A stretch of DNA of 63,810 nucleotides, counting the filler, from Craspedostauros australis (Eukaryota): assembly GCA_030167865.1 (NCBI GenBank). It is 6 parts of 6 records of this genome, joined end to end, with 100 filler letters (N's around TTAATTAATTAA, not from the genome) between each part and the next. Parts side by side here need not be neighbours in the genome. Positions count along the whole stretch, not along the records: positions 12,598 to 21,694 come from JALAGF010004486.1; 5 more parts are not named here. One strand, 5' to 3'. The stretch's first letter is position 1, and every line of letters starts with the position of its first letter. A model generated the notes under the pieces. It did no database searches and was not told where the DNA came from. It worked only from the letters and a program-made list of their open reading frames with translations. The translations under genes and the position numbers were made by a program. This document shows, one piece after another, positions 11,401 through 63,810 of the stretch.

Positions 11401-12497
11401 TGGTGCCGTTTTTCTTTTGTCGAACTCCAGCTATTCGTCACGGATGATTACTCAGCTCTCGTGTCTCGATTGGCGTGGTAGAGTAAGTCGCGTGGTATCT
11501 GGCTCGCGAGCGTACGAGGAGCTCGTGCCGCTGCCATCCAACACCTCTACCTTGGGGATGGTGCGCCGCTCGCCCATCTGTCTCCCTCTCTCTGTGTGTG
11601 CTTGTGTGCGTCTCCAGAAATGCCCCAAGGTCCCCTGGAATCAATAGGCCCCCTTCTGCCCCCGCGGATGCGAATAGCTCGTAGTTGCGCCAGCACTCAT
11701 CTTCGGAGGAGTAACTGAATGAGCGCTCTCTGCGCTGTCGATCATGCATTGTACCAGTGTTGATGATACCCCGCCCCTGATCCTTTCGCGTTCGTCTCTG
11801 GTTCCGCTCCCTGCGACGGATGAGGAACGGGAACAGAGAGCAAGGCGCAGATTGGCGAAGAAGTGATGGAGTGATCGAGTGATGGACACTGAGAGAAACC
11901 ACGAAACATGCGCGCACGAGCCAGAGATAGAAAACTCTCTCTCACTCACTCACCCATCCACCCACTCACCCACTTGCATACGCCGGAGAGAAGGGATGGG
12001 CACAGTCAACAGGCCAACTGGCGAACACTCGGGTGTGGGAATATTCCAATGACACGCATACTTTGTGACCTTGAGAGTGATCAAATTGTGTCGTGAATGA
12101 ATTTTGTTCCTCACTCAAATCAATCACGACTCCAGGAACCATGCGCGCCATTTTTTCAACAATGTTCCTTGTGTGTTATGTTCAATCAAAACACGGCGAA
12201 GATTCTGGATCGATCGTGGATCTGGATNNNNNNNNNNNNNNNNNNNNNNNNNNNNNNNNNNNNNNNNNNNNNNNNNNNNNNNNNNNNNNNNNNNNNNNNN
12301 NNNNNNNNNNNNNNNNNNNNNNNNNNNNNNNNNNNNNNNNNNTTACACGGGAGATGCTGCTGACCCTGCAACTTGCATTCTGACAGAACAACATCTCGTC
12401 ATCATCTCATAAACCGAGAGTTCAATCAACTCAACAACGCAAACCAACTAAATCGACAACTAACGATTACCAATTTACCTCCAAACCAGAGCCCACG

Positions 12498-12597
12498 NNN
12501 NNNNNNNNNNNNNNNNNNNNNNNNNNNNNNNNNNNNNNNNNTTAATTAATTAANNNNNNNNNNNNNNNNNNNNNNNNNNNNNNNNNNNNNNNNNNNN
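12498..12597. other. Artificial contig spacer (N44-TTAATTAATTAA-N44)
   Basis: The same six-frame-stop linker occurs five times in the window. Confidence 0.97.
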
Positions 12598-14087
12598 TCC
12601 CCCTTGTAGATGCATTCGATGACATGGCGGACATATTTGGGTTGGAGGTCAGGAAGAGCCACGGTGGTTTGGATGGAGTCAGTGATCGGATCAGGGACAG
12701 GGACAGCGACAGGGTCAGCGACAGGATCAGCGATAGAATCGTCCCATGACGATGACAGCGAGGATGACGATGACGGTGGGGATGATGGCTTGGTCAAAGA
12801 TAGATGGTGGATTCCAGAGTCGATCAATGTTTGAATCGATGGGACGGTGACCACGAGGACTCCGCTGTTTGCCTTGATCGGTTGTTGTCGGTCGCCTTGT
12901 CCACACAGGAAAACGATGTCTGCGTTCGCCTCGGTACGAACAGCGCTGCAACGATCTTGGCCGATGCTGATGTTGGTCGTTGTGTTGATGTTCGACTTGT
13001 TGTGCTTGGGTGTTGCTGTGGCAGTGCTTGTGATGCTTCGTTTGTGAAGCTGTAGTTGTGAGCTCAGGTGACTGAGACGCTCCATGATCGATCTCATCAT
13101 GTTGATCTGATGTGTTGGATCGATCACATCGAGGGGTGTTCTGTTGTTGTTGTTCTTGATGTCGATATCGATGTTAGCGTTGGCTGATTCAATGAGGCAC
13201 TTGACGCAGTCAGAATGACCTTCGGAGCATGCGAGATGAAGGGGAGTGTCACCATCGTTGTTGTTGCAGTTGACGTTGACCTCACACGATTCAATGAGAT
13301 ACTTGACACACTCGAGATGACCATTGTGGCATGCATCATGAAGAGGAGTGGAACCATAGTTGTTTTTGAAGTTGGCGTCGACCTTCGCAGAGTCGACGAG
13401 GTACTTGGCACACTCGAGATGGCCATATTCGCATGCATGATGAAGAGGAGTGTCACCATAGTTGTTTTTGTAGTTGGCGTCGACCTTCGCAGAGTCGACG
13501 AGGTACTTGACACATTCGAGACGGCCATTATCGCATGCCAGATGAAGAGCAGTGGAACCATGCTCGTTTTCGCAGTTGGCATCGGCCTTCGCAGAGTCGA
13601 CGAGGTACTTGGCACACTCGAGATGACCATATTCGCATGCCAGATGAAGAGGAGTGTCATCATCGTCGTCTTCGCAGTTGACATCGGCCTTCGCAGAGTC
13701 AACGAGGTACTTGGCACACTCCAGATGACCATTTTGGCATGCATCATGAAGAGGAGTGCCGCCATTGTTGTCTTTGCAGTTGATGTCGGCCTTCGCAGAG
13801 TCGATGAGGTACTTGACACACTCGAGATGACCTTCGGAGCATGCCAGATGAAGAGGAGTATTATCATCTTCGTCTTCGCAGTTGGCATCGGCCTTCGCAG
13901 ATTCGATGAGGTACTTGACACACTCCAGATGACCATTTTGGCATGCCAGATGAAGAGGAGTGTCACCATCGTCGTCTGCAACCTTGTTGACATCAACGCT
14001 TTCCTTCTGCTTCTTCCATTCTTTCAACACAGACACATCACCTGCCTTGGCAGCATCAAGGAGTTGTTGGTTCGAAACATCCAGCAT
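12598..14087 (-). CDS. Ankyrin-repeat protein with a C-terminal BTB/POZ-like domain; 3'-truncated by the contig end
   Basis: Eight 34-aa repeats (G.TPLH.AC..GHLEC.KYL). These are followed by ADIVFLCG...IKANSGVL and VALPDLQPKYVRHVIECIYKG, which resemble the start and end of a BTB domain. Confidence 0.85.
13165..13978 (-). repeat. Tandem array of about 102-nt ankyrin-coding units (8 copies)
   Basis: Near-identical nucleotide units, e.g. recurring GAGGTACTTG(A/G)CACACTC. Boundaries are approximate. Confidence 0.9.
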
Positions 14088-15768: not shown

Positions 15769-15923
15769 ACAACATCACCGTCAATCACAACAACCACAAC
15801 AACAACGAATCTCACCTACGGCAAGGTTCTGGCAGTCCCCAACATTGCGCGCAAGACATCGAACAGGCTCCGACGCAGCGTCCGGCACACTTCTCTTGTC
15901 ACGGAACTTCGGCAGGTCATGCC

Positions 15924-16111
15924 TGTCAATAGGACGGAGTGTGTGAATCAATGTTGTTCGCTAATATTTATGAGAGATAGCATTGATGTATTGAGGAGTT
16001 GCGGTCTGAACCTCTGCTAGTGTCTTGCTCTGCTCTAGGGAAAAAGTGGGCGCGAGGTGCGCGGTTTGCGTACGCCGGGTAGACGAGTCACGAGCGGGAG
16101 TAGAATCAATA
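15924..16111 (-). repeat. 3' LTR (188 bp, TA...CA termini)
   Basis: Identical by eye to 21012-21199. Confidence 0.95.
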
Positions 16112-19100
16112 CACCCTCGCGTAACTCCCAACATGCTCTGTCCTGCTGTTTTGCTGCTGTCTGGAGTGGGCTTCAGGTATACTTCGCGCATTTTGCGATG
16201 ATGGGCCGTCGGGTGATGTTTCGTGAAGTAATCCGCGAGGTTGTCGGCACCGGGGGCCCAGTAGATGATGAAATGGCCTTGCTGGACTCGATCACGTACC
16301 CAGTAGAAACGCATGTCCATTGCGCGGGTTCGTCGTTGCTTCATGGTGTTGTTGACGATGCCTGATGCGGTGGAGTTGTCCGTTTTGATGGGAGTCGGTG
16401 GCTGTTCGTGGCCTAGTTCTGCGAGTGTGGTTCGAAGTGCGGTTGCTGCGTTGCAGTTCATGTACAACGCGCCGACTTCGGCTTCCGCTGCCGAACTCAT
16501 GACGTTCTGTATCTTGTTGCATACAGTGTGGATGGCCCCGTTGTTCGGGGGTGGGCAGGTGGGTGCCTTGGTGCCGTCGATGGACTTCGCGCTGAGGTAC
16601 ATGTGTCCCCCTGCCCGGCTGCGCGCTTTGGGCAGACTCAAATAGGACGCATCGCTGTCGACATGAAGTATCATATCGCTGGCTTTGTATTCTATGGTCG
16701 CGTGTGGGTGCGTGGCACAGTAGTCCAAGAGCTGTTTGACGCTGTGGGCTGTGGTCTGTGTTGCATGCGCCTGCTGTGTGGCTATGTCGCTGACTGCCGG
16801 CAGGATGGTAGGATCGACCGCTCTTGCGTAGTATAGCAGGGTGCCGACGATTTGCCGGATTCGGATGATGTCGGCTGCCGGTAGTTCTGGCGATGTGTCT
16901 TCGAGTTTTGGTTCTTGTGTTTTGGCGCCGTATTGTGGTGCCTCACATTTTGCTGGGGAGTGCTGGGGTCTCGTTGGTAGTGGGTGTTGGAATTTGTGGA
17001 GTGCCTTCTGGATGTACCCGGGCATGGAGAGCCCGACTGTGCGCTTCTCGTAGTCCCATTTGAGGCTCACTCCACAGTAGAGGTCGCCGTCCCACTCGAT
17101 GGTGCACTTGTAGATTGTCTGTAGTGCTGTGATGAGGTGCTGGGCGTGCTCTTTGCCAACGTATTTGACTCCGAAGTCATCTACTACCAGGGTGAATGTG
17201 ATCGGTCTCCAGTCGTGTTTCCACAGGCCTGGTGTGTGTGGGACTGGGCGGTATCCGAATTTCGCGAGGTGTTTTTGCAACTTCACATTCGCGATCTTGC
17301 CGGCTTGGGGGAGTCCGTACATCCCTTTGCGGACTTCGACGTATACATTGCCGTTGTGTTCGAGTTTGCGCAGCTGGTATTGCTCGATGATTTCTGGTGG
17401 TATCATCGCTACCGGCATGCGCATGTACTCATAGCGCTTCATGTCGGTGTTCAAGTAGAAGTCCTTGATGTCGATCGTCATGAAGCGCGCCTGCGGGGTG
17501 GACACGACGCTGTTGAAGAGGCATTTCGCGGTGGTGAGTTCTGCCGTTGGTGTGTGTACGTCGAAGGGGTAGTCGATGAGGTTGCCGCCAACCGTGAGTC
17601 TGGTTCGATGGGTTTCCGCTTTCTGCGGTCGTACGGCGCATACAATGCGGCCGTATGTGACAGTGCGGTCTCTTGGTACGGCGGACCGTGGTACGAAGAA
17701 GATTGTGTTGGTTGCGGCGGATGCTGGGATGCGCGTTCCGATGCCTTGGGCCAGGCGACCGATCTCGTTGGCAAATGATGTGTACCATTGCTCCGGTGTG
17801 TGGCCGTGTACTTTCCCAGCGATGAGATGCCGGTACTCGTATGCGGTTCCTGTTCGTTCGTCGATGACGGCGTTGGCTTTACTCGTGTGCTGCGACCATT
17901 GTCGCCGCTGGATTGCGCCTGTTCGCAGTCTCGTGCGTGGGATGGCCGTTGCCGGATGCGGTTGCGCGTCGTCTTCGTGGTCGGACTCGTCGTCGGAATC
18001 GTCGTCGTCGTCGGACTCGGCTTCGTCGTCTGTCACTGGTGGCGCCGTCGGGGCCACCCTCGGACGTGAATGCGTGTCTGTCGGCAGCGCTTGTGGTGGG
18101 CCGGTTTGTGTCGGGCCGCATGTCGTTGTCTGCCGTGTGTCGATGGCGCGCGTCGGTGTTGGCACCCTCGGAAGTGATGCTGTCGGTTGCGTTCCTGCGG
18201 CGGTGGCGAATATGCTCTCCAGTTGTTTCAGCGCTTGCAGTTGCTGGTCGCCGACTGGCTGTAGTGGGAGGCATGGTTTGGTGAGCGCTGCGGTGAGGTC
18301 ACTGGCGGCCTTGATGGCCAGTTCTGCATTGGTGGGCGTGGGGACGGCGCATTTGCTGGGCATCAGTTCGATGGTGTCGGTGATGCGTACCTTGCGTGTT
18401 TTGCTGCAGTACACCTTGTAGCACCGGTAGTGCTCCATGGCCGGTGCGATGTACCATCCTGCGGTGCCGTGTGGGGCCCATGTCGCTCGTTTGCTGGGCT
18501 TGTCGTGGATGACGGCTCGTGTTCCCGGAGGTGCCACTGGCGTCGCGTTGAAGTCGAAGGTGCCATGCAGTACTTGATACGCCGACACGTGTGGGTTGAC
18601 TCGCGATGGCCGCATGAGGTTGAGCGTTGCGTCGCATTGCGGGAGGAGATGACACCACAAGTTCAGCGGGAACTTCGCGTCGGCGGTGGCCAATCCTGCG
18701 ATGAAGTGGTCCTTCCAGGTTGAGATGGCTCTCTCTGCCGCGTTGCGTCGGTGGATCCCTGGCGGTACTAGTTGGTACTTGACGCCTTTGGAACGGATGA
18801 GTTGCTTGAGTTCCGCCGGTGCTTCGTTGTCTAGTTGATGAAAACATGGCGTGAGTCCGCTTCGGAGGAGAACGTCCAACATCTCGCCGCACGCTCGTGT
18901 GAGTTCGGTCGCGTGTCGGCTTTTCAGCGGGCGTGACAAAATTGCGTTCGAATCGTGATCGTAGAGTACCATGATGTATTGGTATCCGCGACACGACGTC
19001 ACTGGGAATCGGCCTGTTTGGTCGGTGTAAATTCGGCCGGAAGGCTGATACACATCCATGAACATATCGCGGGGTTCTGGCGAATTCTTGGTGGACTGGA

Positions 19101-19788
19101 CGATGTTCCCACATTTTCGCTTGGTGGACTGCGTGTTCTGGTACTGCTGTCGCAGATGGCCAGCCGCCGTCGCTTCGGAAGGTGGAAGGAATTTTCGCAC
19201 CAATTGTTCGGTGAGGCCAGGCCATGACGCAAAGAATCCTTTCTTGATCGCTGCCGTGAACGTGGATACCGCTGGGCTGAAGCAGCACTGGTGGTAATAC
19301 TTGGCGAGCTCGGTCTTGGTGGACTGGTGATGGATGTGATTGGCCAATTTTGGCGAATCCGGTGGTTTCGGTTGGATGTTAATTCGGTACATTCCGTCAA
19401 CTTGATGCCGACAGCCTGTGTGAATCGTGTTTCCGTTTTTTCGAATTCTCACGGATTCTTGGTCAAAGTCAACAGTCATGCCGTGGTCACACAGCTGTCC
19501 CACAGACACAAGCGAGGCGCTCGTGAGCTGTGGAAAAACTCTTGCTGCACATGCATGCTGTGGCACGTTGGAGATGCTGACTGTGGCTCGGTGGGAAGAT
19601 TGGATCGACGAACCGTCAGGCAGCGCAACAGACAACGGTTTATCGTCGGGTGTTCGGCCAATGCTTGGATCGGTTTGGCGCAAGAAATGACTAGTGCAAC
19701 CTGAGTCAACAATGGCAAGGGCAGGCTCACAGGGTTTTGAAGTAGTAACAGCGAAAGTTACTTGCTTACTGTGCTCCTGCCGTGGTCG
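15961..19788 (-). CDS. pol: Pol (protease, integrase, RT, RNase H), in frame with gag after a single UGA
   Basis: AIVDSGCTSHF protease motif upstream of the listed ORF start. Integrase IYTDQTG...LDNE...RNAAERAI; RT YGLPQAG and LVVDDFG; RNase H HVDSDASY, SSAAEAE, TDNSTA, NLADYFTK. No internal stops. Confidence 0.95.
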   Translation of the reverse strand, partial: RPRQEHSKQVTFAVTTSKPCEPALAIVDSGCTSHFLRQTDPSIGRTPDDKPLSVALPDGSSIQSSHRATVSISNVPQHACAARVFPQLTSASLVSVGQLCDHGMTVDFDQESVRIRKNGNTIHTGCRHQVDGMYRINIQPKPPDSPKLANHIHHQSTKTELAKYYHQCCFSPAVSTFTAAIKKGFFASWPGLTEQLVRKFLPPSEATAAGHLRQQYQNTQSTKRKCGNIVQSTKNSPEPRDMFMDVYQPSGRIYTDQTGRFPVTSCRGYQYIMVLYDHDSNAILSRPLKSRHATELTRACGEMLDVLLRSGLTPCFHQLDNEAPAELKQLIRSKGVKYQLVPPGIHRRNAAERAISTWKDHFIAGLATADAKFPLNLWCHLLPQCDATLNLMRPSRVNPHVSAYQVLHGTFDFNATPVAPPGTRAVIHDKPSKRATWAPHGTAGWYIAPAMEHYRCYKVYCSKTRKVRITDTIELMPSKCAVPTPTNAELAIKAASDLTAALTKPCLPLQPVGDQQLQALKQLESIFATAAGTQPTASLPRVPTPTRAIDTRQTTTCGPTQTGPPQALPTDTHSRPRVAPTAPPVTDDEAESDDDDDSDDESDHEDDAQPHPATAIPRTRLRTGAIQRRQWSQHTSKANAVIDERTGTAYEYRHLIAGKVHGHTPEQWYTSFANEIGRLAQGIGTRIPASAATNTIFFVPRSAVPRDRTVTYGRIVCAVRPQKAETHRTRLTVGGNLIDYPFDVHTPTAELTTAKCLFNSVVSTPQARFMTIDIKDFYLNTDMKRYEYMRMPVAMIPPEIIEQYQLRKLEHNGNVYVEVRKGMYGLPQAGKIANVKLQKHLAKFGYRPVPHTPGLWKHDWRPITFTLVVDDFGVKYVGKEHAQHLITALQTIYKCTIEWDGDLYCGVSLKWDYEKRTVGLSMPGYIQKALHKFQHPLPTRPQHSPAKCEAPQYGAKTQEPKLEDTSPELPAADIIRIRQIVGTLLYYARAVDPTILPAVSDIATQQAHATQTTAHSVKQLLDYCATHPHATIEYKASDMILHVDSDASYLSLPKARSRAGGHMYLSAKSIDGTKAPTCPPPNNGAIHTVCNKIQNVMSSAAEAEVGALYMNCNAATALRTTLAELGHEQPPTPIKTDNSTASGIVNNTMKQRRTRAMDMRFYWVRDRVQQGHFIIYWAPGADNLADYFTKHHPTAHHRKMREVYLKPTPDSSKTAGQSMLGVTRGCIDSTPARDSSTRRTQTAHLAPTFSLEQSKTLAEVQTATPQYINAISHKY

Positions 19789-20952
19789 TCACGCGGTGGT
19801 CGGTGCTCCTTCGGTGGATCCTCCCATCGTGTTGTCACGTGTGGCTTCGCGCTTGTGGCCGTGTGCTGGGTTGTTGCATGTGGCGCTGGTGTGCGACGCC
19901 GCGACCTTGTATCCGTGGGTCCAGCAGTACGAGTTGTGCTTCTGCTTGCGCTTGTTCTTCTTGCCTGCTCCGGTGTTGGTGAGCGCCACGTTGGCTTGCA
20001 TCTGGGATACCATGGTGGTGATCTCCGTCAGCTGCTTGACCAGATTGGCGTTGCTCTCGGTGAGTCTGGCGACAGTGTCGCGGTCCGCCGCGGTGGCCGA
20101 TGCCAGATTGGCCAGAGCGTCGGCGGTTTCGGTGGGCGAGATGACAGCATTGGCGCTTTGGTAGTCGCCGCCTGCTGTCGTCGCTTGGGTCTCGCGATGG
20201 TCTTGGTGTGCGGCGGCAAAGTCCGTCTTGAATCTTGCCCATGTCTTGTCGGCGGCACGGAGAGCGCGGAAAGAACGGCATGCTTCGGGGAACACTTGCG
20301 TGCGAAACACCAGGTTGTACGCGGTGGTGACAAGCTGATGTTCGGAGTACGGGGTCTTGGCTGCGGCGGCAAGATCTCGTGCCGACTCGATCTGTGCGAC
20401 GAGGACTTCGAACGGCGTTGACGGATCGTAGGGCGCCTTCATGTTCTTGTCGTTCTCGTCAAGGTCTTGCGGTGTGATCTTCTCGTACGTGCTGTACAGG
20501 TGTGTCAGGAGCTCGAGCGTGGTTACGTTGGCGTACCCTACGATGTTGTGTCGTAGGGTTCGTACGTACTGGTCCTCGACCGCGCCAAGAAGCTGCTGCT
20601 TGAGGGCGTTGTCGACGGCGCGGTACTCTCGCCAGAGGCGCTCCTGTTCCTTGTGGATGCTGGTGGCTGCGCTGATCTGGGCTGCTGTAGCCGCGTTCGG
20701 GATGTTCGGATGTGGTCCTGGGTTGGCTGGCACGACGAAGGCTGCGGTGGACTGCTCTTGAAAGATATCGTCAGAGACGGTGAGTACCAAGTAGCCGAGC
20801 TGTCCATTGCCGAGGGGGCAATGTACAGAAGCTGCGTTTGCGTTGAGTACTACGTTGAGCTCTGCGATGGTCTCGTAGGTGGGCACCCCGACGATGGGTT
20901 CGACGACGGCTTGCGGAAAGGTCGCGAGGATCTTCTCGTGGCTGTTGGCCAT
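19789..20952 (-). CDS. gag: Gag of the copia element (387 aa)
   Basis: Begins 59 nt after the 5' LTR. C-terminal YCWTHG...HTSATC...GH...NTMGGS Cys/His motif typical of diatom copia Gags. Confidence 0.92.
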   Translation of the reverse strand: MANSHEKILATFPQAVVEPIVGVPTYETIAELNVVLNANAASVHCPLGNGQLGYLVLTVSDDIFQEQSTAAFVVPANPGPHPNIPNAATAAQISAATSIHKEQERLWREYRAVDNALKQQLLGAVEDQYVRTLRHNIVGYANVTTLELLTHLYSTYEKITPQDLDENDKNMKAPYDPSTPFEVLVAQIESARDLAAAAKTPYSEHQLVTTAYNLVFRTQVFPEACRSFRALRAADKTWARFKTDFAAAHQDHRETQATTAGGDYQSANAVISPTETADALANLASATAADRDTVARLTESNANLVKQLTEITTMVSQMQANVALTNTGAGKKNKRKQKHNSYCWTHGYKVAASHTSATCNNPAHGHKREATRDNTMGGSTEGAPTTA

Positions 20953-21011
20953 GGTGATGATGTTGGTCTTGGTGACCGAGATTTTTCAAACGTTTGCTAT
21001 TAGCGAACAAC

Positions 21012-21199
21012 TGTCAATAGGACGGAGTGTGTGAATCAATGTTGTTCGCTAATATTTATGAGAGATAGCATTGATGTATTGAGGAGTTGCGGTCTGAACC
21101 TCTGCTAGTGTCTTGCTCTGCTCTAGGGAAAAAGTGGGCGCGAGGTGCGCGGTTTGCGTACGCCGGGTAGACGAGTCACGAGCGGGAGTAGAATCAATA
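21012..21199 (-). repeat. 5' LTR (188 bp)
   Basis: Direct repeat of 15924-16111, followed by the TSD ATGCC. Confidence 0.95.
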
Positions 21200-21694
21200 A
21201 TGCCATCGGTGGTGGAGCAGGAGTCGCACGCATCCTTCAACTTCGTGGTCAACGGCGACGACAATAATACCAACAACAATGCCAGTCCAACATCATTCTC
21301 CCTCTTCCCATCAAGCGATATCGCATCACGTCGATCGGCCACCACTGACAACAACAACAACAATGAGAGCAACAGCAACAACAACAGGAAGAAAGGTAGA
21401 GGCAAAGGCAGAAAGCGCCCAGTCGCCAACGCTGCCGAACTGCAACAAGCCGTTCTGGACGACGGAGTCGCCTTCAAGGATGTGCAACTCGAGATCGACC
21501 TGGCCGAGAAGGACGTCCAAGACATGCTATCGCACGACGTCCTGCAAATCCTTGCCCAACGGTTCCACGATCCTTCCTCCAAACCGGGCGCCCGCAACGA
21601 CGATGCCAGCGTCGCACTCGCCATCGAAGGCGGCGGCATGCGTGGCTGCGTCTCGGCTGGCATGGCAGCCGCGATAGCCTCTCTCGGTCTCTCG

Positions 21695-21794
21695 NNNNNN
21701 NNNNNNNNNNNNNNNNNNNNNNNNNNNNNNNNNNNNNNTTAATTAATTAANNNNNNNNNNNNNNNNNNNNNNNNNNNNNNNNNNNNNNNNNNNN
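21695..21794. other. Artificial contig spacer
   Basis: N44-TTAATTAATTAA-N44. Confidence 0.97.
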
Positions 21795-22944: not shown

Positions 22945-23217
22945 ATGCTTGCCACAGCCTACAGCCGTATTCACGCCGCCACCTCGAGCAGGTTCACCAG
23001 CGCCGCCGCGCGCGGATTCTCTGTCCCTCCGCAGAGCCTGTGGGCATTCCCTGGCTTCGTCGGCTTCACCTGGTTCATCTGGCAGGGATTGACCGATGAC
23101 ATCAAGCAGTCCGTCGGTCTCTACTGGGACCCGCATGCTGTTGTGAAGCGCGTCGAGATGGAGAAGGAGCAACGATTGGCCGCGCGCGAAGCCGCCAAGC
23201 TGGCTGCCAAACAGTAG
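22945..23217 (+). CDS. Small single-TM protein (90 aa), QCR10/UQCR11-like; short paralog of 31370-32306
   Basis: Ser/Arg/Ala-rich N-terminus resembling a mitochondrial presequence, then the TM segment SLWAFPGFVGFTWFIW. Near-identical core to the second copy. The family name is tentative. Confidence 0.55.
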   Translation: MLATAYSRIHAATSSRFTSAAARGFSVPPQSLWAFPGFVGFTWFIWQGLTDDIKQSVGLYWDPHAVVKRVEMEKEQRLAAREAAKLAAKQ

Positions 23218-31369: not shown

Positions 31370-32306
31370 ATGTCCGGAGTCTACGGCCGAATCTTCGCGG
31401 CCACATCGAAGCGGCTGACGAGCTCCGCCGTGCGCGGATCCTCGATCCCTCCGCAGAGCCTGTGGGCAGTCCCAGGCCTTGTCGGCTTCACCTGGTTCAT
31501 CTGGCAGGGATTGACCGATGACATCAAGCAGTCCGTCGGTCTCTACTGGGACCCGCATGCTGTCGTGAAGCGCGTCGAGATGGAGAAGGAGCAACGATTG
31601 GCCGCGCGCGAAGCCGCCAAGCTGGCCGCCAAGGCTCCAAAGCCGTCGATCGAGGAGACCATCGCCGCCGTCGTGGAGCAGGCCGAAGACGAGGAAGACG
31701 AGGAAGAAGAGGAGCAGCAGGCTGAGGAGCCAGTGGTGGAAGAAGAGGAGGAAGAGGCCGCGCCTGCTCCAGCCGCCGAGGTCGAAGCTGGGTCTGGCGA
31801 TGACGAAGAGGAGGAAGTCGAGGCTCCCAAGAAGAAGGTCGACGACATGACCATGGAAGAGAAGTGGGCCTACTTCGCCGAAAGGGCCACAAACCCAGGC
31901 GACGACGATGATGATGACGACGATGACGATGACGTAAGTGTCTATGTTTGTTGGCACATGCTGAATGTCACTCAGTCGGTTCTTCACAACTTGGCCACAA
32001 CACTCGCGCAGAGCAGAGCAGACTTTGCCTACCACCCTGCTGCTGATGCCAATGCTACTGCCCATTCTGCTGATGACGACAGCTCCCTGCCTCATACAAG
32101 TACTATATTCATATGCATGCCTATGCATAACTGTTCCACATGCTCTCCCATCCAACTCACACCTTCACTCTGTCTTTTACACCCACCCGGCCACCTCAAT
32201 GCATCACATTATATGTGCCAACTTCAAATCTGAATACTCCACTGAACTCCTCTCGCTACCACAGGATGATGACGATGATGATGACGACGAAGATGATGAC
32301 GAGTAG
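31370..32306 (+). CDS. QCR10/UQCR11-like single-TM protein with long acidic tail; exons 31370-31933 and 32265-32306
   Basis: GTAAGT donor at 31934 and CAG acceptor ending at 32264, phase 0; strong coding codon bias. The family name is tentative. Confidence 0.7.
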
Positions 32307-32779: not shown

Positions 32780-35700
32780 TCATGAGAACGGATTGGAAGT
32801 GAACTGGTTTGGAACCTCGGCTTCATTTGAGTTCCCCGACAGGTACGTGTTTGGGATGGTCATCTTGGGCTGCTCATCTGTCAAGTATCGGAATGTGGCG
32901 CTGCCGTCGTCACCTTCCGCGCTGTTGTTGGTGAGGTTGCCGCTGTGATTCCCGAATGCAACCATGCCCTCACCATTTCTAGTTGCTGGCGATGCAGACA
33001 TGGTAGGCGTTGAGGTATCACGTCGAAAGCGTTTGGAATCAGGTGCAGATGTCGTGGACACTGGGGGGAGGCCCATCTGCTGCGACTGCATCGATGACGA
33101 GGAGGAGGTCGGTGCCCCGAAGCCATTGCCGAAGAACTGCTGAATACCCGTGAAGAAATCACGCGCTGTCCGTTGGCCGGCACTCTGATCTTCCTCCGCG
33201 AATGTCTGCAGGTACGTGTCCATGTCCACCCTGACATTGTTGGGCATTCGCTTGGAGCCGGACAGCGAGTTGGGTGTGTTGTTTGATGAATTGGACGCCA
33301 CCGAGGCACTGGATGACATCGGTGCTGCAGAATCGGTTGAGTTTGGCATCTTGACAGCGGGATCCTGATGTTGGAGCATCAGCTGTTTCTGCTTCTCTTG
33401 CTGTCTCTTGTTCTGGGCAGAAACGACTGCCCTGCGGTTCCGGAATCCGTGCGATATCTTGTCCCTCGCCGCGGAATCGCTCACCACGACCCACGACGCC
33501 CCGTCCTGCTTCAGAAAGCGTCCCCCCGAAGCCTTCACGACCTGCACGATCTCCTTCGTGAGCGCTGTCTTTTCGAGCTTTTTGGACATGTCGTACTTCT
33601 GTCGGTTGGTTTCGATGAGATGAGAGTAGCGCAAGTTTCCAGGGTGTTCCTGGAACGGCCGGCCGCGACCCAGGAGAACATCATTCGTTCCTGGCACAAC
33701 CACTCGTGAGCCCTCTTTGGTTTGTGCCTCTGCACCCGCTGCGCCGACAAGATTGCTTTGTGTGATACTGCCCATCACCATTGATTTGGTTTGCCCATTC
33801 AGTATGGTGCCGCTGATGATATTCTGCTGAAGCTGCAACTGCTCTGCCTGCTGCTGCATCGGCAACGCAGACATCATGGAAGTTACAGGATCGGCCAGCG
33901 ATTGATCCACATGTGGCAGATTGTTGCGCATGTTCGCCAAGTTGAGGGGTGTTTGCATGTTCGATTCGCTGGTGGTCCCGCAGATTGTGGAGAAACTAAT
34001 TGCTGTTTGTGCTCCTGCTCCTGCTCTTCCTCGCGTTTGTGTCGACGTGGCTGACTGCATCGATGGACCGGCGGCGTTTTCTTCGGCATCGTAATGGGCG
34101 TCTGTGAGCTCCCGGTGGTCGCACCACATGTGGTGGCTGTTGAGATTGATGATCCCATCGGCATTGACGGGAAGTATGGCATCGGAGATGCCGAACGTCA
34201 TCAGCTTGTAGATGCACTCCATATGTGTTCCGAAATGAGGCCTGAATCGTGTGCGTGTGTGCTTGTCGAACATGGTCAGCGATAGTAGCAATCTCAGATT
34301 TGCATTGTCGTAGCAGTAATGCAGTGCCACAAGCCGGTATGGCAGATATCCAAAGAGGCGCCCGTTCTTCCACGCTGCGACGTGGTCGATCGAGCGATTT
34401 GCGACATTGTACGCGATGGTCACTATGCCACGCTGCTGCGTCGACACGTCCTCCAGCGCAGCCATCGTAATGTAGTAGATAGCACGGAGCTTTCAAATAT
34501 TGGTTGAGTGGAGCAGATTGATACGGTTTTGTTTGGAGTGGGGGTGAATTGCATGGAATTGCATGGAGTTGGGTTGGGTTGAGTTGGATCATGGCAGAGA
34601 ACGGCAGTTCGGTACGTGATCAGATCGTGTCGTGTTGAAGCGAAACGAAGCCAACCAGATCATGGCGTGTACCATAAAGGGATGGACACGGTGATTTTCG
34701 AACATGTAGCATGAAGGAAACGGCACCATCGCATAGAGTCGAGTCGAGGATAGCGTAATGCAACAAATTTTGGCATCGTACAGCACAGAGGCATCGTGAG
34801 CGGTCAGCGAGATGCGTTTGGGCATTGTATGTTCTGTTGCTGCTTCAGGATCATACCAGATTTGCCTCCGTCGCACTGTAGTGGCCTCGCCATCGTTGCT
34901 TCCTCCAATGAAAAGCTTCGCGTGTTCTCATTCCGCAGCGCTTGCCATTCGACCGGATACAGTTTGCGATTTGCAATGCAATCTCTCCGCGTCTTCGTCA
35001 ACACTCATCACGATAACACACCCGCTAAGTCTTCGTTCTCAGAAGCAGAATCCGCTATCAGGCCGCGTGCCAAGCATTCGTGCAGGTGGAGCATGGCAGT
35101 AGAGTAGAGTGGAGCAGAGTACGTACATTTGCGTTGGTGTGCTGTTGTTTTCCCCTAATGCCAGGGAAGATGACCAGGATGACTCGTCCCGCCCGATCCC
35201 GTCCAGGCAGCAGTTGCAGATATCCACTCCTCAATGTGGCACGGTCCTCATCCGTCAAGTCGCTGTATCGCACGGAACGGCACAAGCAATGCACGCCGAA
35301 TAGGTCCAGCTTGGCCCTCAGGAATCCGAACAACCGTGATGCTGCTCTCGAGACATCGAATGCCTCCGACCGCAGGAATAGCAGGAGAAAAGATTGCGAT
35401 GTGACGTAGGACGCGTCGATTTGGCATGCCAGCTGAAACGCGTACGTCGCATGTTTGCTGTCGACCGGCACGTTCCACTCGTAGGTACCAAAATCACTGG
35501 CGCCGCTCGTTCCGTCGCATGGACTGTCCCGACCTCTCGTCGGCTTTGTGGTAGAAGTGGAGCGGGATGCTTTTTGCACTTGCCTGTCGATTTCTACTCG
35601 CAGCAGATCGCACTGCTGCGGGATGAAGTCTGGTGATTTGTTTTCCTGGATGAGATCTGCGACACCGTGGATGTCGTACAGCACTTGATCGCGTTCCTTC

Positions 35701-55027: not shown

Positions 55028-55386
55028 CGTATCCCTGTTTGCGACAATTTTTGATTGGGTGAGTCAGTCGCATCAACACTTGACTAATCCGACCCATTTT
55101 GCCGGTTGTTCCAAAATGCTCCGAAACAGTCTCGTGTTGCCTATGACGGTCTTTTCGGGATGTTCTTCACAGGGACTCGAGGGACAAATGCTCTTGCGCC
55201 AACATGACCAACTCGTTTCTGTCTTGATCGGAAACTGTATCAACTGTGGGTGATGACGAACCAACAGGAACAAACAACAACGGAATCGCAGTGGATGGCC
55301 ACAAAATGAAGAAACAGAGCAAATTCATCTCGCATAATACCAGTACACGACTATTCGTTCACATACCCACCTTCTCTCCCTCCATC

Positions 55387-57719
55387 ATGCGCGACGACGA
55401 CCATGATCAAACGACCGAAGACAGTTCTGGCGATGTCGCAACAACCGCATCCGATACACCCAGAGGCAATGATGAGCACTCTCCTCTGCCAGACATCACA
55501 GATGATGTCGAAGCCGGCATCATCAAGCCACAATCATTGCCTCCGTCGCAGGCATCAACGACATTGGCTTCGTCCGACGGCATCAGCAGCCCTGCTGTCA
55601 TCAGCGAGCATGATGTCATCCACAAATCCATCCAAAACAAATCCTTCCTCGACCATCTCAAGTTCGTCGTCGAGCTCAAGTCCGACATCGTCTTTTCCAC
55701 TTGGTACAACGACAAGGGAAAGGCAATCAACAACTACACCTTCCAGCAGCTTTGGGATGAAGCCGGCCAATGCGCCCATCTCCTCCGCAACAAGTGGGAC
55801 GTCAACAAAGGCGACCGTGTCGTTCTCTGCTACGACTTCGGTCTGCACTTCTTCGCTGTCTTCTTGGGATGTCTTCGTGCAGGCGTGACTGCCGTGCTGG
55901 TCTATCCTCCTGGACCGCCGCTCGTCAAGTCGCTCACCAAGATGAACAAGGTGATCGAGGATTGCGCTCCAGCACTCATCCTCACCCAAACATCCATCAA
56001 TCTCCTTCGAGCCGCCGATCGCGCCAACCCAACATCCAAGAGCCGCTCCATGTGGCCAAGCGGGGTGAAGTACCAAGTCACAGATCGCATAGTTCGCCGT
56101 GATGGCTTCATCACGGACAAGACCAACGGCAAGAACAAGCAAGCCAAGAAAGGCTTCCTTTCCAGCCTCATCTCTGGCCGTTCATCATCACCGCCGCCTT
56201 CATTCGATGAACCCAACATCGCAGGATCGGATCTGGCGTTCCTCCAGTACACATCTGGAAGCACCGGCAACCCCAAGGGTGTGATGGTGACGCATGCCGC
56301 ACTGAGGGCTAACATCGAACTTCTCCATGGTGGTTGGCTGGATTGCTTTGAAAATGACGTGGGTGATAGAGGCAAAATACCAAAGAGAATCACGGCATGC
56401 TCATGGCTACCGCAGTACCATGACATGGGTCTGATCCAGATGGGCATTGCGCCTTTGTCCGGTGCCTTCCGTCTCCATATGCTGTCGCCCGTCTCATTTA
56501 TCAGCAACCCGCTGCTGTGGATTGATCTGATCTCGCGGCACAAGTGCCACATGAGTGCTGCGCCAGACTTTGCGTACCGCCTTGCAACACGCAAGTTCAA
56601 CGAGGCCAAGAGCAAGCAGACTGGAAAAGGTCATCCCATCCCGAACCTCGACCTATCCAACGTGTATCATCTGCAAAACGCGGCCGAACCAACACGGCTG
56701 GACACAGAAAAGCACTTCTCTGACGCATTCTGCCCATACGGCCTGCGCGAGGAATGGTTTGTGGCTGGGTATGGTCTTGCAGAGAATGTGGTTGGCGTGA
56801 GTTTCAAGCATGGATTTCATGTTTCTACCATCCGCGAAGGTGAAGATCTGCATCCATCTGTGGCAATTGCACACCGCAATACTCTACACCAATCGATTGA
56901 CATCATCATTGTGGACCCGGACACCTGCGTGAAACGTCCAGAAAATACCACTGGAGAGATCTGGATCGCCGGGGCCTCTGTCGCAGCCGGGTACTACAAT
57001 CAAGCCCAGCTCACCGCTGACGAATTTCATGCGAAGCTGCAAGATCCTCCATCCGATGGCGATGGCAATGGCGAGAACGCCGCTGACGGTGACAGCAATG
57101 GAGGCCGCCCTTCGACCAAGACGTACTTGCGAACGGGAGACTACGGATTCTTCCAAGATGATCATCTCTTCATTTGCGGACGCAAGAAGGACATCATCAT
57201 CGTCAATGGTGTCAACTACTACCCGCAAGATATCGAGCATGCTGTTGAAGAGGCCTCATCTGCCGTCCGTCCAGGATGTGTCGCGGCATTCTCATCTGAT
57301 GATTCAGGCAACGATGGACAGCTCGAGATCGTCTTTGAGATCCGAACCAACCATACAGACGATGCTGCAACAATCTGTCAGGAGATCAGAAAGGCCGTGA
57401 TGGAGCACATCGGATTGGCACCTGTCACAATCGCAGCCGTCAAGGAACGCACCATCTCCAAAACAACAAGCGGGAAGATCCAGAGACGCCGCAACCGACA
57501 ACGTCTGCACGATGGAGACCAGAAAGCAATATTCAGCTTCAGCGCAAACCCAAATCCAACCGCCCAAGTTGCACAGGATGGTGATGCCAAGACATCGCCA
57601 ACCGAAACCATGTCAGCGAGGAACGCAGACCAAGACGACGACCTCCAAAGTAAGACTTTCCATGAGATCATCACGAACGCAACGGGATCGCAAGTCAAGG
57701 GAGATGAAACGTGGGAGGA
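55387..57719 (+). CDS. Fatty acyl-AMP ligase (FAAL)-like adenylation enzyme, probably multidomain; 3'-truncated
   Basis: LAFLQYTSGSTGNPKGVMVTH, SWLPQYHDMGLI, P..F..NPLLW, APDFAY, YGLAE, YLRTGD, GRKKDIIIVNGVNYYPQDIE and KTTSGKIQR are FAAL-type signatures. Confidence 0.9.
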
Positions 57720-57819
57720 NNNNNNNNNNNNNNNNNNNNNNNNNNNNNNNNNNNNNNNNNNNNTTAATTAATTAANNNNNNNNNNNNNNNNNNNNNNNNN
57801 NNNNNNNNNNNNNNNNNNN
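57720..57819. other. Artificial contig spacer
   Basis: N44-TTAATTAATTAA-N44. Confidence 0.97.
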
Positions 57820-62527: not shown

Positions 62528-63810
62528 CTGTCATTTGATGCATTGCCGTCCTTGGCGTTGCTCCCTTCCGTCCAATGGTTGTGAAGCTATCTGCGTTCGT
62601 CATTTCTGAATCGTTGAGTGTGTTTGGTGCTTGNNNNNNNNNNNNNNNNNNNNNNNNNNNNNNNNNNNNNNNNNNNNNNNNNCAGGAACAGACCAGTGAC
62701 TTGGTCGATGGTCTGTACATGTTGTACACTCCTGATGCATGTTGGTGTGCATATCCGATGAACACCATCTCTTCTCCTCTATTCTTGAGCTTGGCGGAGA
62801 TCCCGCCATAGGCGGTCTTCACAACAACCACCTCTCCGAATGTGCGGAGTGAATCGGCGTATGGTGGATTGCTGTCAAAGAATTGGCGATGGCAGTGGCA
62901 ATGCTTGCAGCTGATGCCCACAGGCCATGCCTCTATTTGTTGTTGAGTGGTGCTCTGTTGAGCATGGAACGGATCTTGGTGTAGAGATACACAAACTTGC
63001 GTTCTACTCTACCATTCCGCTGTGGCGTGTTGGACGCCATGAACTCGAATTTCGCATTCAGTCCTGCATCGATGAGAGTATCCTGCGTGGATTTGTTCTC
63101 TCCGCTGTTATCGCCTTGGAAAATGATTTGTTGATCACCTGTGTGACTTGATCGTCTGCACGAATCGTTTGATACCCTGGTTGGTCCCTCTTGTTCTTCA
63201 GAAAGAAGCTCCAGCAATAGTCCGTGAAGCCGTCCACAATCAAGGTCCAGTAGCGTTTATCTCTGAAGCCTATGTGTTTAGTGTAACTGATATCGATGAA
63301 GAGGCGTTCGCCATGGCGAGTCGCTCTTGGGATTCTAGTCTTTGAGATGTTCTTCACTCTCGCATTCGCGACAGCACAGTCGCGACACACCAGCATCTTG
63401 CCGATGATCTTCCATCCGTATTGAGCGGCTGTCTGCTTCATGGTCTCGAGTGGTGCGTGACGGAGCATTCGATGCAAGTTCACTGCGCTCACCTCCTTGG
63501 ATGGGCTCTTGATGATGGCTGTGGAAGCCTTGTCATCCTCAGTTGGCATGATGGGATGCATCTGCACTCCTGTGATGAATCNNNNNNNNNNNNNNNNNNN
63601 NNNNNNNNNNNNNNNNNNNNNNNNNNNNNNNNNNNNNNNNNNNNNNNNNNNNNNNNNNNNNNCAATCTGGTAACTGTTGTATAGTGCCTTGTTTGTAGAG
63701 AAAAGGTTCACCACCATCTTGGGTGTGTACTTCACATTATTGAGCTGGATAATGTGGCAAGTGTTGTCATGTTGCTTGACCTTCAAGCGGATGGATCCGA
63801 TCTTGGGAGA
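62528..63810 (-). mobile_element. Degenerate Ty1/copia pol fragment (end of protease, GAG-pre-integrase region, integrase)
   Basis: NVKYTP...NLFS; HRMLRH...CRDC; RLFIDIS; GDNSGEN; TPQRNGRVERKF; KLKNRG..FIGY. Contains frameshifts and gaps. Confidence 0.88.

Follow-up and report, generated by a model that had tools for sequence, protein, structure and literature searches.

Complementarity between the long terminal repeat and the primer-binding site of a copia-order retrotransposon from Craspedostauros australis points to probable Tf1-like self-priming

How does a copia-order retrotransposon begin reverse transcription when the sequence next to its long terminal repeat (LTR) lacks the TGG start of a tRNA-type site, and is instead complementary to a segment of that same LTR? 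The question is raised by a stretch of 63,810 nt from Craspedostauros australis (assembly GCA_030167865.1), filler included and joined from six parts of six records, which we call the window and whose positions are used throughout. Its minus strand carries, in the part from JALAGF010004486.1 (12,598 to 21,694), one complete LTR retrotransposon of 5276 bp (21199..15924). A segment of the 5' LTR of this element can pair perfectly with the nucleotides that follow the LTR, the pairing partner abuts the LTR end exactly, and compensatory changes have conserved the pairing across a divergent family of relatives. From these sequences, our best reading is that reverse transcription is probably primed by the element's own RNA, in the manner of Tf1 of Schizosaccharomyces pombe; we regard this as likely, with some room left for doubt. 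The features on which the argument turns are the following.

20998..21011, minus strand: 3' arm of the hairpin, the putative primer-binding site (PBS), GTTGTTCGCTAATA, from the first base after the LTR onward
21012..21040, minus strand: loop between the arms, 29 nt, made of the last LTR bases (sequence reading and fold)
21041..21054, minus strand: 5' arm, the proposed self-primer, TATTAGCGAACAAC, within the LTR; perfect complement of the 3' arm and paired with it in the fold
21058..21062, minus strand: CTCAT, an initiator-like motif, with a putative transcription start at A 21059 or T 21058

The original prediction for this locus described a perfect 14-nt complement between LTR and PBS, a 29-nt gap, an LTR ending in TTGACA and no spacer, and it was correct in every detail: read as its reverse complement, GTTGTTCGCTAATA (21011..20998) agrees with 21054..21041 at all 14 positions, and 29 nt separate the two arms. 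The number of perfect complements of the 14 nt after the LTR expected within a 188-nt LTR is about 175/4^14 = 6.5e-7. When inverted pairs of at least 11 nt and no more than 300 nt apart were collected from 15800-21300, three were obtained, and the LTR-PBS repeat was the sole perfect one. The 14-mer, allowed up to two mismatches, has four matches in the window against 0.15 expected, a count reached in 0 of 100 shuffles; these are the PBS itself, its complement in both LTRs and one site with two mismatches. In the minimum-energy fold of the RNA from 21059 to 20950 all 14 of 14 pairs are formed (-23.6 kcal/mol, z = -4.3), and none of 200 shuffles was as stable. The predicted lack of a TGG-starting tRNA site was also confirmed, no TGG being present in the first 40 nt after the 5' LTR. 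No tRNA genes were found within the window, and Rfam families gave no match in 15800-21400.

The comparison with relatives was based on pol. Among 8000 candidates scored, 1220 pol homologs were recovered at an expectation value (E) of up to 0.001, the best being 64% identical. Metagenome contigs were scanned with an alignment of 28 pol homologs; 609 stretches matched, of which 588 were relatives, and the best 80 of these 588 (L001-L080, pol identity 38-63%) form the comparative set. The informative set consists of the 48 loci, out of 80, that certainly include the leader. The remaining 32 comprise 12 loci with a perfect hairpin, where presence of the leader is not sure, two 3' LTRs, and 18 loci without usable leader that were left out (L004, L008, L012, L021, L031, L034, L038, L047, L054, L055, L058, L062, L064, L067, L072, L073, L077 and L079). 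The two 3' LTRs (L003 and L078) enter unrelated flank and, as expected, carry the 5' arm with no complement after the LTR. Terminal direct overlaps reaching both ends were seen in 34 of the 80 contigs, which thus represent cyclic or tandem LTR-plus-interior units. L036 and L061 are examples, as is L033 (1-11307), which spans about 1.86 such units; L001 also spans more than one. The overlaps could come from collapse of the assembly at LTRs, from genuine tandem arrays or from circles with a single LTR. Contigs with a poly(A) tail, which would mark them as transcript-derived, were not found among the 80 loci.

A first, blind scan of the 80 loci for perfect inverted repeats with a stem of at least 11 nt returned 54 matches. 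Most of these were lone hairpins, with stems of 11-14 bp, loops of roughly 30-48 nt and arm sequences that vary by locus. Once positioned against the gag and pol matches, a perfect hairpin of at least 10 bp was found in the homologous place in 46 of the 80 loci. In 29 of the 30 gag-anchored loci it precedes the inferred first gag codon by 13-191 nt (L020, at -67, is the exception), and it precedes the pol N-terminus by 1.2-2.0 kb in all loci but L075 (2570 nt); the corresponding distance from stem to gag ATG in the window is 45 nt. All 48 leader-bearing loci have the same stem, which is perfect and at least 10 bp long in 35 and shorter or imperfect in 13. Automatic thresholds applied to the same 48 gave 34 perfect stems, five imperfect ones (among them L019, actually a perfect 12 bp) and nine loci with none, and all 14 loci of the latter two classes show the stem in their minimum-energy fold. 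The departures consist of a bulge of 1-2 nt (L013, L027, L041 and L044), one mismatch (L002, L014, L028 and L039), G-U pairs (L018 and L063) or a length of only 8-9 bp (L050, L052 and L060). Complementarity has therefore been kept, and not lost, in 48 of 48 informative relatives, with arms that covary; this was the comparison that the original prediction had proposed, and the self-priming that it had suggested is supported by pairing that compensatory change has maintained across a divergent family.

A test defined by position, and so independent of the choice of hairpin, was performed on the 34 loci with at least 2 kb upstream of pol. In the zone from 1150 to 2000 nt upstream of pol (851 nt), 23 of the 34 loci have a perfect repeat of at least 10 bp. 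These zones hold 25 repeats in 28.9 kb, against 2.06 expected from a background of 12 in 168.8 kb (Poisson P ~6e-19).

The arms themselves differ widely from one locus to another. Over their inner 10 positions, the arms of the 47 perfect hairpins (that of the window and those of 46 loci) represent 39 distinct sequences. A cognate pair of arms matches at all 10 of these positions, and a non-cognate pair at a mean of 4.5 of 10 and never at 10. MAFFT alignments of the hairpins misaligned the 5' arms, the loop lengths being different, and were excluded from the pair counts, which come from one gapless set only, made up of 11 sequences that share a loop length of 37 nt, out of 46 distinct hairpin sequences. 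In this set 12 of 12 pairs vary on both sides and all cells pair, and neither any of 500 shuffles nor any slid register came near the observed values. Close relatives show single compensated changes, such as TTTACGTAGCTC/GAGCTACGTAAA versus TTTACGTAGTTC/GAACTACGTAAA. On this comparison, the conserved feature is the pairing and not the sequence.

The hairpin is also placed with precision relative to the LTR. Its 3' arm is preceded by an LTR-terminal CA (34) or TA (13) in 47 of 47 hairpins. Where two LTR copies are available (the window element, L053 and L032), no base intervenes between the LTR and the arm, and a further pair of loci tells the same story: the LTRs of L014 and L003 agree up to TTGACA, beyond which L014 enters the complementary arm, whereas L003 passes into flank unrelated to it. 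Over the 47 hairpins the stems measure 10-14 bp (mode 12) and the loops 19-74 nt (median 37). Of the 39 distinct 5' arms, 36 end in C, and TGG stands at the start of the 3' arm in 0 of 47.

On the other side of the hairpin, all 46 aligned hairpin regions share the C and A of a CAT motif, and the 5' arm starts 0-5 nt after CAT, never including it, in 44 of 47. Nowhere is the LTR more conserved across the family than in (A)TAGCTCATAA, directly upstream of the 5' arm (window 21058-21068, minus strand), a stretch that might also serve the 3' LTR as an AATAAA-like poly(A) signal. CTCATAA matches both the Inr-like (initiator-like) consensus TCAH+1W proposed for diatoms (PMC4686930, in its available part) and the human initiator BBCA+1BW (PMC5287107), and the CAT motif fits the oomycete initiator YCAYTYY (PMC3599244). 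That the arm does not extend upstream of CAT in 44 of 47 hairpins fits a transcript starting at CAT. The start had been predicted at or very near 21054. Judged from the motif, a start at CAT, at A 21059 or T 21058, is more likely than one exactly at 21054, which lies 4-5 nt further downstream. In L039 (1658-1758), L075 (52-123) and L032 (135-245) the 5' arm follows CTCAC and not CTCAT, and L039 and L075 have a second CTCATAA-like motif inside the loop; this arrangement may reflect duplicated start regions.

These elements suggest the following scheme. Transcription would start at or beside the conserved CTCAT in the 5' LTR, and the 14-nt segment of the RNA would fold back over the last 29 nt of the LTR to pair with the 14 nt that come after it. 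By analogy with Tf1, the RNase H of the element would then cut at the 3' end of the duplex, leaving a 3'-OH on the C of 21041, whose partner in the duplex is the first base beyond the LTR. Reverse transcriptase would extend the primer thus released across the loop, from the LTR-terminal A, and the product, a short minus-strand strong-stop DNA, would be transferred to the 3'-terminal repeat of the RNA. Plus-strand synthesis would copy the RNA primer, such that the PBS would be rewritten from the 5' arm in each cycle, and a host tRNA would not be required at any step. Rewriting of the PBS through copying of the primer during plus-strand synthesis would follow from the general replication cycle of LTR elements; its recurrence in each cycle would explain how the arms can remain perfectly complementary while their sequence drifts. 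A minus-strand start site occupied by sequence that matches, and covaries with, the element's own LTR is the signature of Tf1-type self-priming.

Several observations weigh against this scheme. The transcription start is placed by a motif, and a start downstream of the 5' arm would give an RNA whose 5' end lacks the primer. The repeat (R) and unique 5' (U5) regions together would have to fit into a loop of only 19-74 nt (29 in the window), and such a repeat is short for the first strand transfer. Because many contigs have terminal overlaps, most LTR ends are not independently mapped, and L053, one of the mapped cases, has no clear target duplication. The 13 imperfect stems were judged by eye and from folds of chosen segments. 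Since the hairpins were found as perfect repeats, the perfect-pairing counts for the 47 hairpins and for the 11-sequence set are partly so by construction; the position-defined test and the count of 48 of 48 are the less biased figures. Lastly, a covariance model built from the 11 hairpins with 37-nt loops missed the hairpin of the window. It gave 37 matches at E up to 1, six of which were reverse-strand mirror hits, and the miss reflects the narrowness of the model, which covers one subfamily, and not the structure.

Of the other explanations, the one that survives best sees in the hairpin a conserved structure, of RNA or DNA, that serves some purpose outside priming, for example packaging or dimerization, polyadenylation or termination, or the control of gag translation, while something else is the true primer. 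It can draw on the fact that stems joining LTR and leader occur in tRNA-primed retroelements, on the extra stem-loop required by Rous sarcoma virus (cited in the available part of PMC5445492), and on the position of the stem 45 nt upstream of the gag ATG; the link to priming, moreover, is sequence-based. Against it stands the location of the 3' arm, which adjoins the LTR with no base between in all mapped cases and directly follows CA or TA in 47 of 47. This is where minus-strand synthesis must begin, which leaves no room for another PBS, and no TGG-type site follows. A purely structural element would need neither this anchor nor the terminal C-G pair found in 36 of 39 distinct arms. We consider this explanation improbable.

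Less probable again is self-priming of a kind other than that of Tf1, in which the primer would be the arm copy in the RNA of the 3' LTR, or would act in trans from a second packaged RNA. Such a route presumes that the transcript starts downstream of the 5' arm. The 3' LTR does carry the arm, the start site is deduced from a motif, and the ATAAAT beside the arm is readable as a TATA-like element or a poly(A) signal and not as belonging to an initiator. The invariant CAT upstream of the arm, however, fits the initiator consensuses, and in 44 of 47 hairpins the arm does not extend upstream of CAT, as expected if the RNA begins there. In addition, we know of no system in which the primer is still joined to a genome-length RNA.

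Priming by a host tRNA or tRNA half, with the match to the LTR being incidental, is very unlikely and ranks below both. Whole or half tRNAs are the rule in copia lineages (PMC6317226, in its available part), but here the PBS does not start with TGG, it differs among relatives (39 distinct sequences in 47) and it always matches the LTR of its own element, not any shared sequence; the empty Rfam search of 15800-21400 agrees with this. A chance inverted repeat is ruled out by the expectation of 6.5e-7 in the window and by the 25 repeats against 2.06 expected in the relatives.

Tf1-like self-priming, the reading that we favor, can be set beside the systems already described. According to the available parts of the literature, self-priming is established by experiment for Tf1 and has been proposed for Tf1/sushi elements, Tcn1 and Tj1 (PMC4600332 for the last), all of gypsy order. 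In the case of Tf1, nt 1 to 11 of the transcript anneal to the PBS, and the cut by RNase H falls between nt 11 and 12 (PMC7175516, in its available part). The PBS abuts the 5' LTR in Tf1 and Tf2 of S. pombe, in Tf1/sushi elements, in Tj1 of S. japonicus and in Tcn1-like elements, as it does here, and in Tf1 as in our family it is complementary to a segment near the start, putative in ours, of the element's own transcript (over 11 nt and 10-14 nt, respectively), with no tRNA-type PBS in Tf1 and no TGG start in ours. The differences are equally clear. Tf1 has the gypsy order of protease, reverse transcriptase, RNase H and integrase, whereas here integrase precedes a reverse transcriptase of the RVT_2 type; pairing in Tf1 begins at nt 1 of the RNA, and here probably at nt 2-8; and cleavage and primer were established experimentally for Tf1, and are deduced here. 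The element appears to work like Tf1, and it is not a member of the Tf1/sushi group, which belongs to the Ty3/gypsy chromoviruses.

Within the copia order, the closest parallel is the plant Ty1/copia TAR lineage (Houba, Osr-1), for which self-priming has been predicted from sequence (PMC6317226, in its available part). Because of this earlier case, the premise of the original prediction that copia elements are primed by tRNAs only was too strong. The TAR elements have plant hosts and form a separate lineage, set apart from ours by description only.

The fungal GalEa elements resemble ours as copia elements with a hairpin at the PBS position, the Conserved Hairpin Site, and they lack a tRNA-type PBS (the available part of PMC5445492 is the source for all that follows on GalEa). 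They have LTRs of the form TGT...CA, a 5-bp target duplication and ADxxTK at the end of RNase H, which reads ADYFTK in the window element. Both arms of the GalEa hairpin, however, lie downstream of the LTR, and in that text no complement was found in the LTR, whereas here the 5' arm is inside it. In GalEa the first arm, which takes in the final A of the LTR, is a 9-nt palindrome that hardly varies; our arms vary freely. The authors could not fit the Tf1 model to the GalEa hairpin, and the window element falls outside their definition of a Conserved Hairpin Site.

The diatom CoDi elements, compared here by description only, resemble ours in being short copia-order elements (about 5.2-8 kb, LTRs of 153-844 bp) with one or no stop between gag and pol and with relatives in ocean metagenomes (PMC2806351, in its available part). 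The main text of that study (Maumus et al. 2009) contains no mention of primer binding, tRNA, priming or hairpin, and uses PBS only as the name of a buffer; the same priming terms are absent from a 2021 re-examination of diatom genomes. A literature search, which lay outside most subscription journals and supplements, found no published report of self-priming for this lineage. As far as these searches show, self-priming would be newly described for this copia-order family.

Self-primed reverse transcription is experimentally known only in Tf1-type gypsy elements, and is predicted in one plant copia lineage. The present family would be a second and very divergent case of copia order, with unusually clean comparative evidence. 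It is abundant in metagenome assemblies, some of them labeled marine. A broader proposal, which we find doubtful, concerns a very large and deeply branching clade of copia-order elements of aquatic protists, in which self-priming would be both ancestral and universal; the 1220 pol homologs and the stem kept by all informative relatives speak for it. If it were true, hairpin self-priming would have arisen independently in the TAR copia elements, in Tf1/sushi gypsy elements and in this clade or, alternatively, would be a relic of the self-priming LTR-element ancestor proposed in PMC3601003. The elements would then also need no host tRNA and would not respond to defenses based on tRNA fragments. 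The family itself has a bearing on whether hairpins primed the earliest LTR elements, and it invites the question of whether tRNA independence helps to evade silencing by small RNAs from tRNA 3' ends (PMC7472051, in its available part). In practical terms, the family offers a natural series of compensatory variants for testing recognition by RNase H and reverse transcriptase, as well as a simple annotation rule; LTR finders based on tRNAs will miss PBSs of this type.

The remaining parts of the element, in the order in which its minus strand is read, are listed below.

21200..21204, minus strand: upstream copy of the target-site duplication, GGCAT; the same 5 nt follow the 3' LTR
21012..21199, minus strand: 5' LTR, 188 nt (identical repeat and target duplication)
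19789..20952, minus strand: gag open reading frame (ORF), 387 amino acids, ATG at 20952, ending in TGA (19791..19789), in frame with pol
15961..19788, minus strand: pol, 1275 codons after the gag stop, with protease, integrase, reverse transcriptase and RNase H (translation and Pfam)
16112..16129, minus strand: polypurine-tract-like stretch ending in GAGGGTG, abutting the 3' LTR (sequence reading)
15924..16111, minus strand: 3' LTR, 188 nt, from the repeat, with a second copy of the 5' arm at 15966..15953
15919..15923, minus strand: downstream copy of the target-site duplication, GGCAT (sequence reading)

The LTR pair was detected as a 189-nt direct repeat with 100% identity (21011-21199 and 15923-16111). 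The true LTR length, as read from the ends and fixed by the target duplication, is 188 nt (21199..21012 and 16111..15924, minus strand); the repeat is one nucleotide longer because the first base of the PBS happens to be the same as the first base of the duplication. The LTRs start with TATTGA and end with TTGACA, the initial TA contrasting with the TG of the relatives. Further copies of the element were not detected in the window by tblastn, and this single copy, with its identical LTRs, intact target duplication and open frames, seems to be young and apparently intact, and is possibly still active. When the empty insertion site was rebuilt, ORFs of 76-271 codons were found to cross it on both strands.

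The class of the element was deduced from pol. By translation, its order is a DSG protease motif, a block with D256, D320 and E352, SH3_retrovirus, RVT_2 and a C-terminal ADYFTK; D256, D320 and E352 are invariant in the family alignment and lie upstream of the invariant DD of the reverse transcriptase. In the window pol, RVT_2 matches residues 728-910 with E 8.1e-07 and 29.3 bits, slightly below the curated cut-off of 31.6, and SH3_retrovirus matches residues 422-471 weakly. Of the 28 family members in the alignment, 22 have a Pfam match to RVT_2 (E up to 0.01, best 1.6e-12), 12 to SH3_retrovirus and one to the integrase core rve. A sequence search of solved structures with the pol profile gave no match. 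Integrase ahead of reverse transcriptase, a reverse transcriptase of the RVT_2 type and a 5-bp target duplication are the features of Ty1/copia elements (Pseudoviridae), and all three are present.

The gag and pol genes share one frame, with a single TGA between them that is followed by CGA (window 19789-19791, minus strand). Relatives with matches to both the gag C-terminus and the pol N-terminus number 24, and 21 of them have exactly one in-frame stop at this place (19 TGA, 2 TAG), which suggests that pol may be made by programmed stop-codon readthrough. At the other end of pol, the motif (A/G)AGGGTG directly before the LTR start is shared with relatives (window 16112-16118, minus strand). 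GAGGGTG falls within the coding sequence of the pol C-terminus (consensus LRGC), and pol thus ends inside the 3' LTR.

Elsewhere, the window contains 747 N in 15 short runs (for example 12228-12342, 21695-21794 and 63582-63662), several of them in 44-nt pairs, one such pair being 500 nt from the 5' flank of the element. A candidate repeat family, D2, proved to be an artifact of these runs. A tandem repeat of 102 nt, in seven copies (13075-13986), is located inside a 513-codon ankyrin ORF (12546-14087, minus strand; Ank_2, E 1e-110). Another direct repeat, of 256 nt and 90.6% identity, is found at 22956-23210 and 31378-31632, 8.4 kb apart; as it has no TG..CA ends and its sequence is GC-rich and coding-like, it looks like duplicated gene segments and not like LTRs. 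A Pfam search of 13 other long ORFs left nine without a match. A DUF6824 ORF lies at 32780-34465 on the minus strand (E 9e-25), a domain typical of diatoms, and an ORF with an AMP-binding enzyme domain occupies 55306-57771 on the plus strand (E 9e-56).

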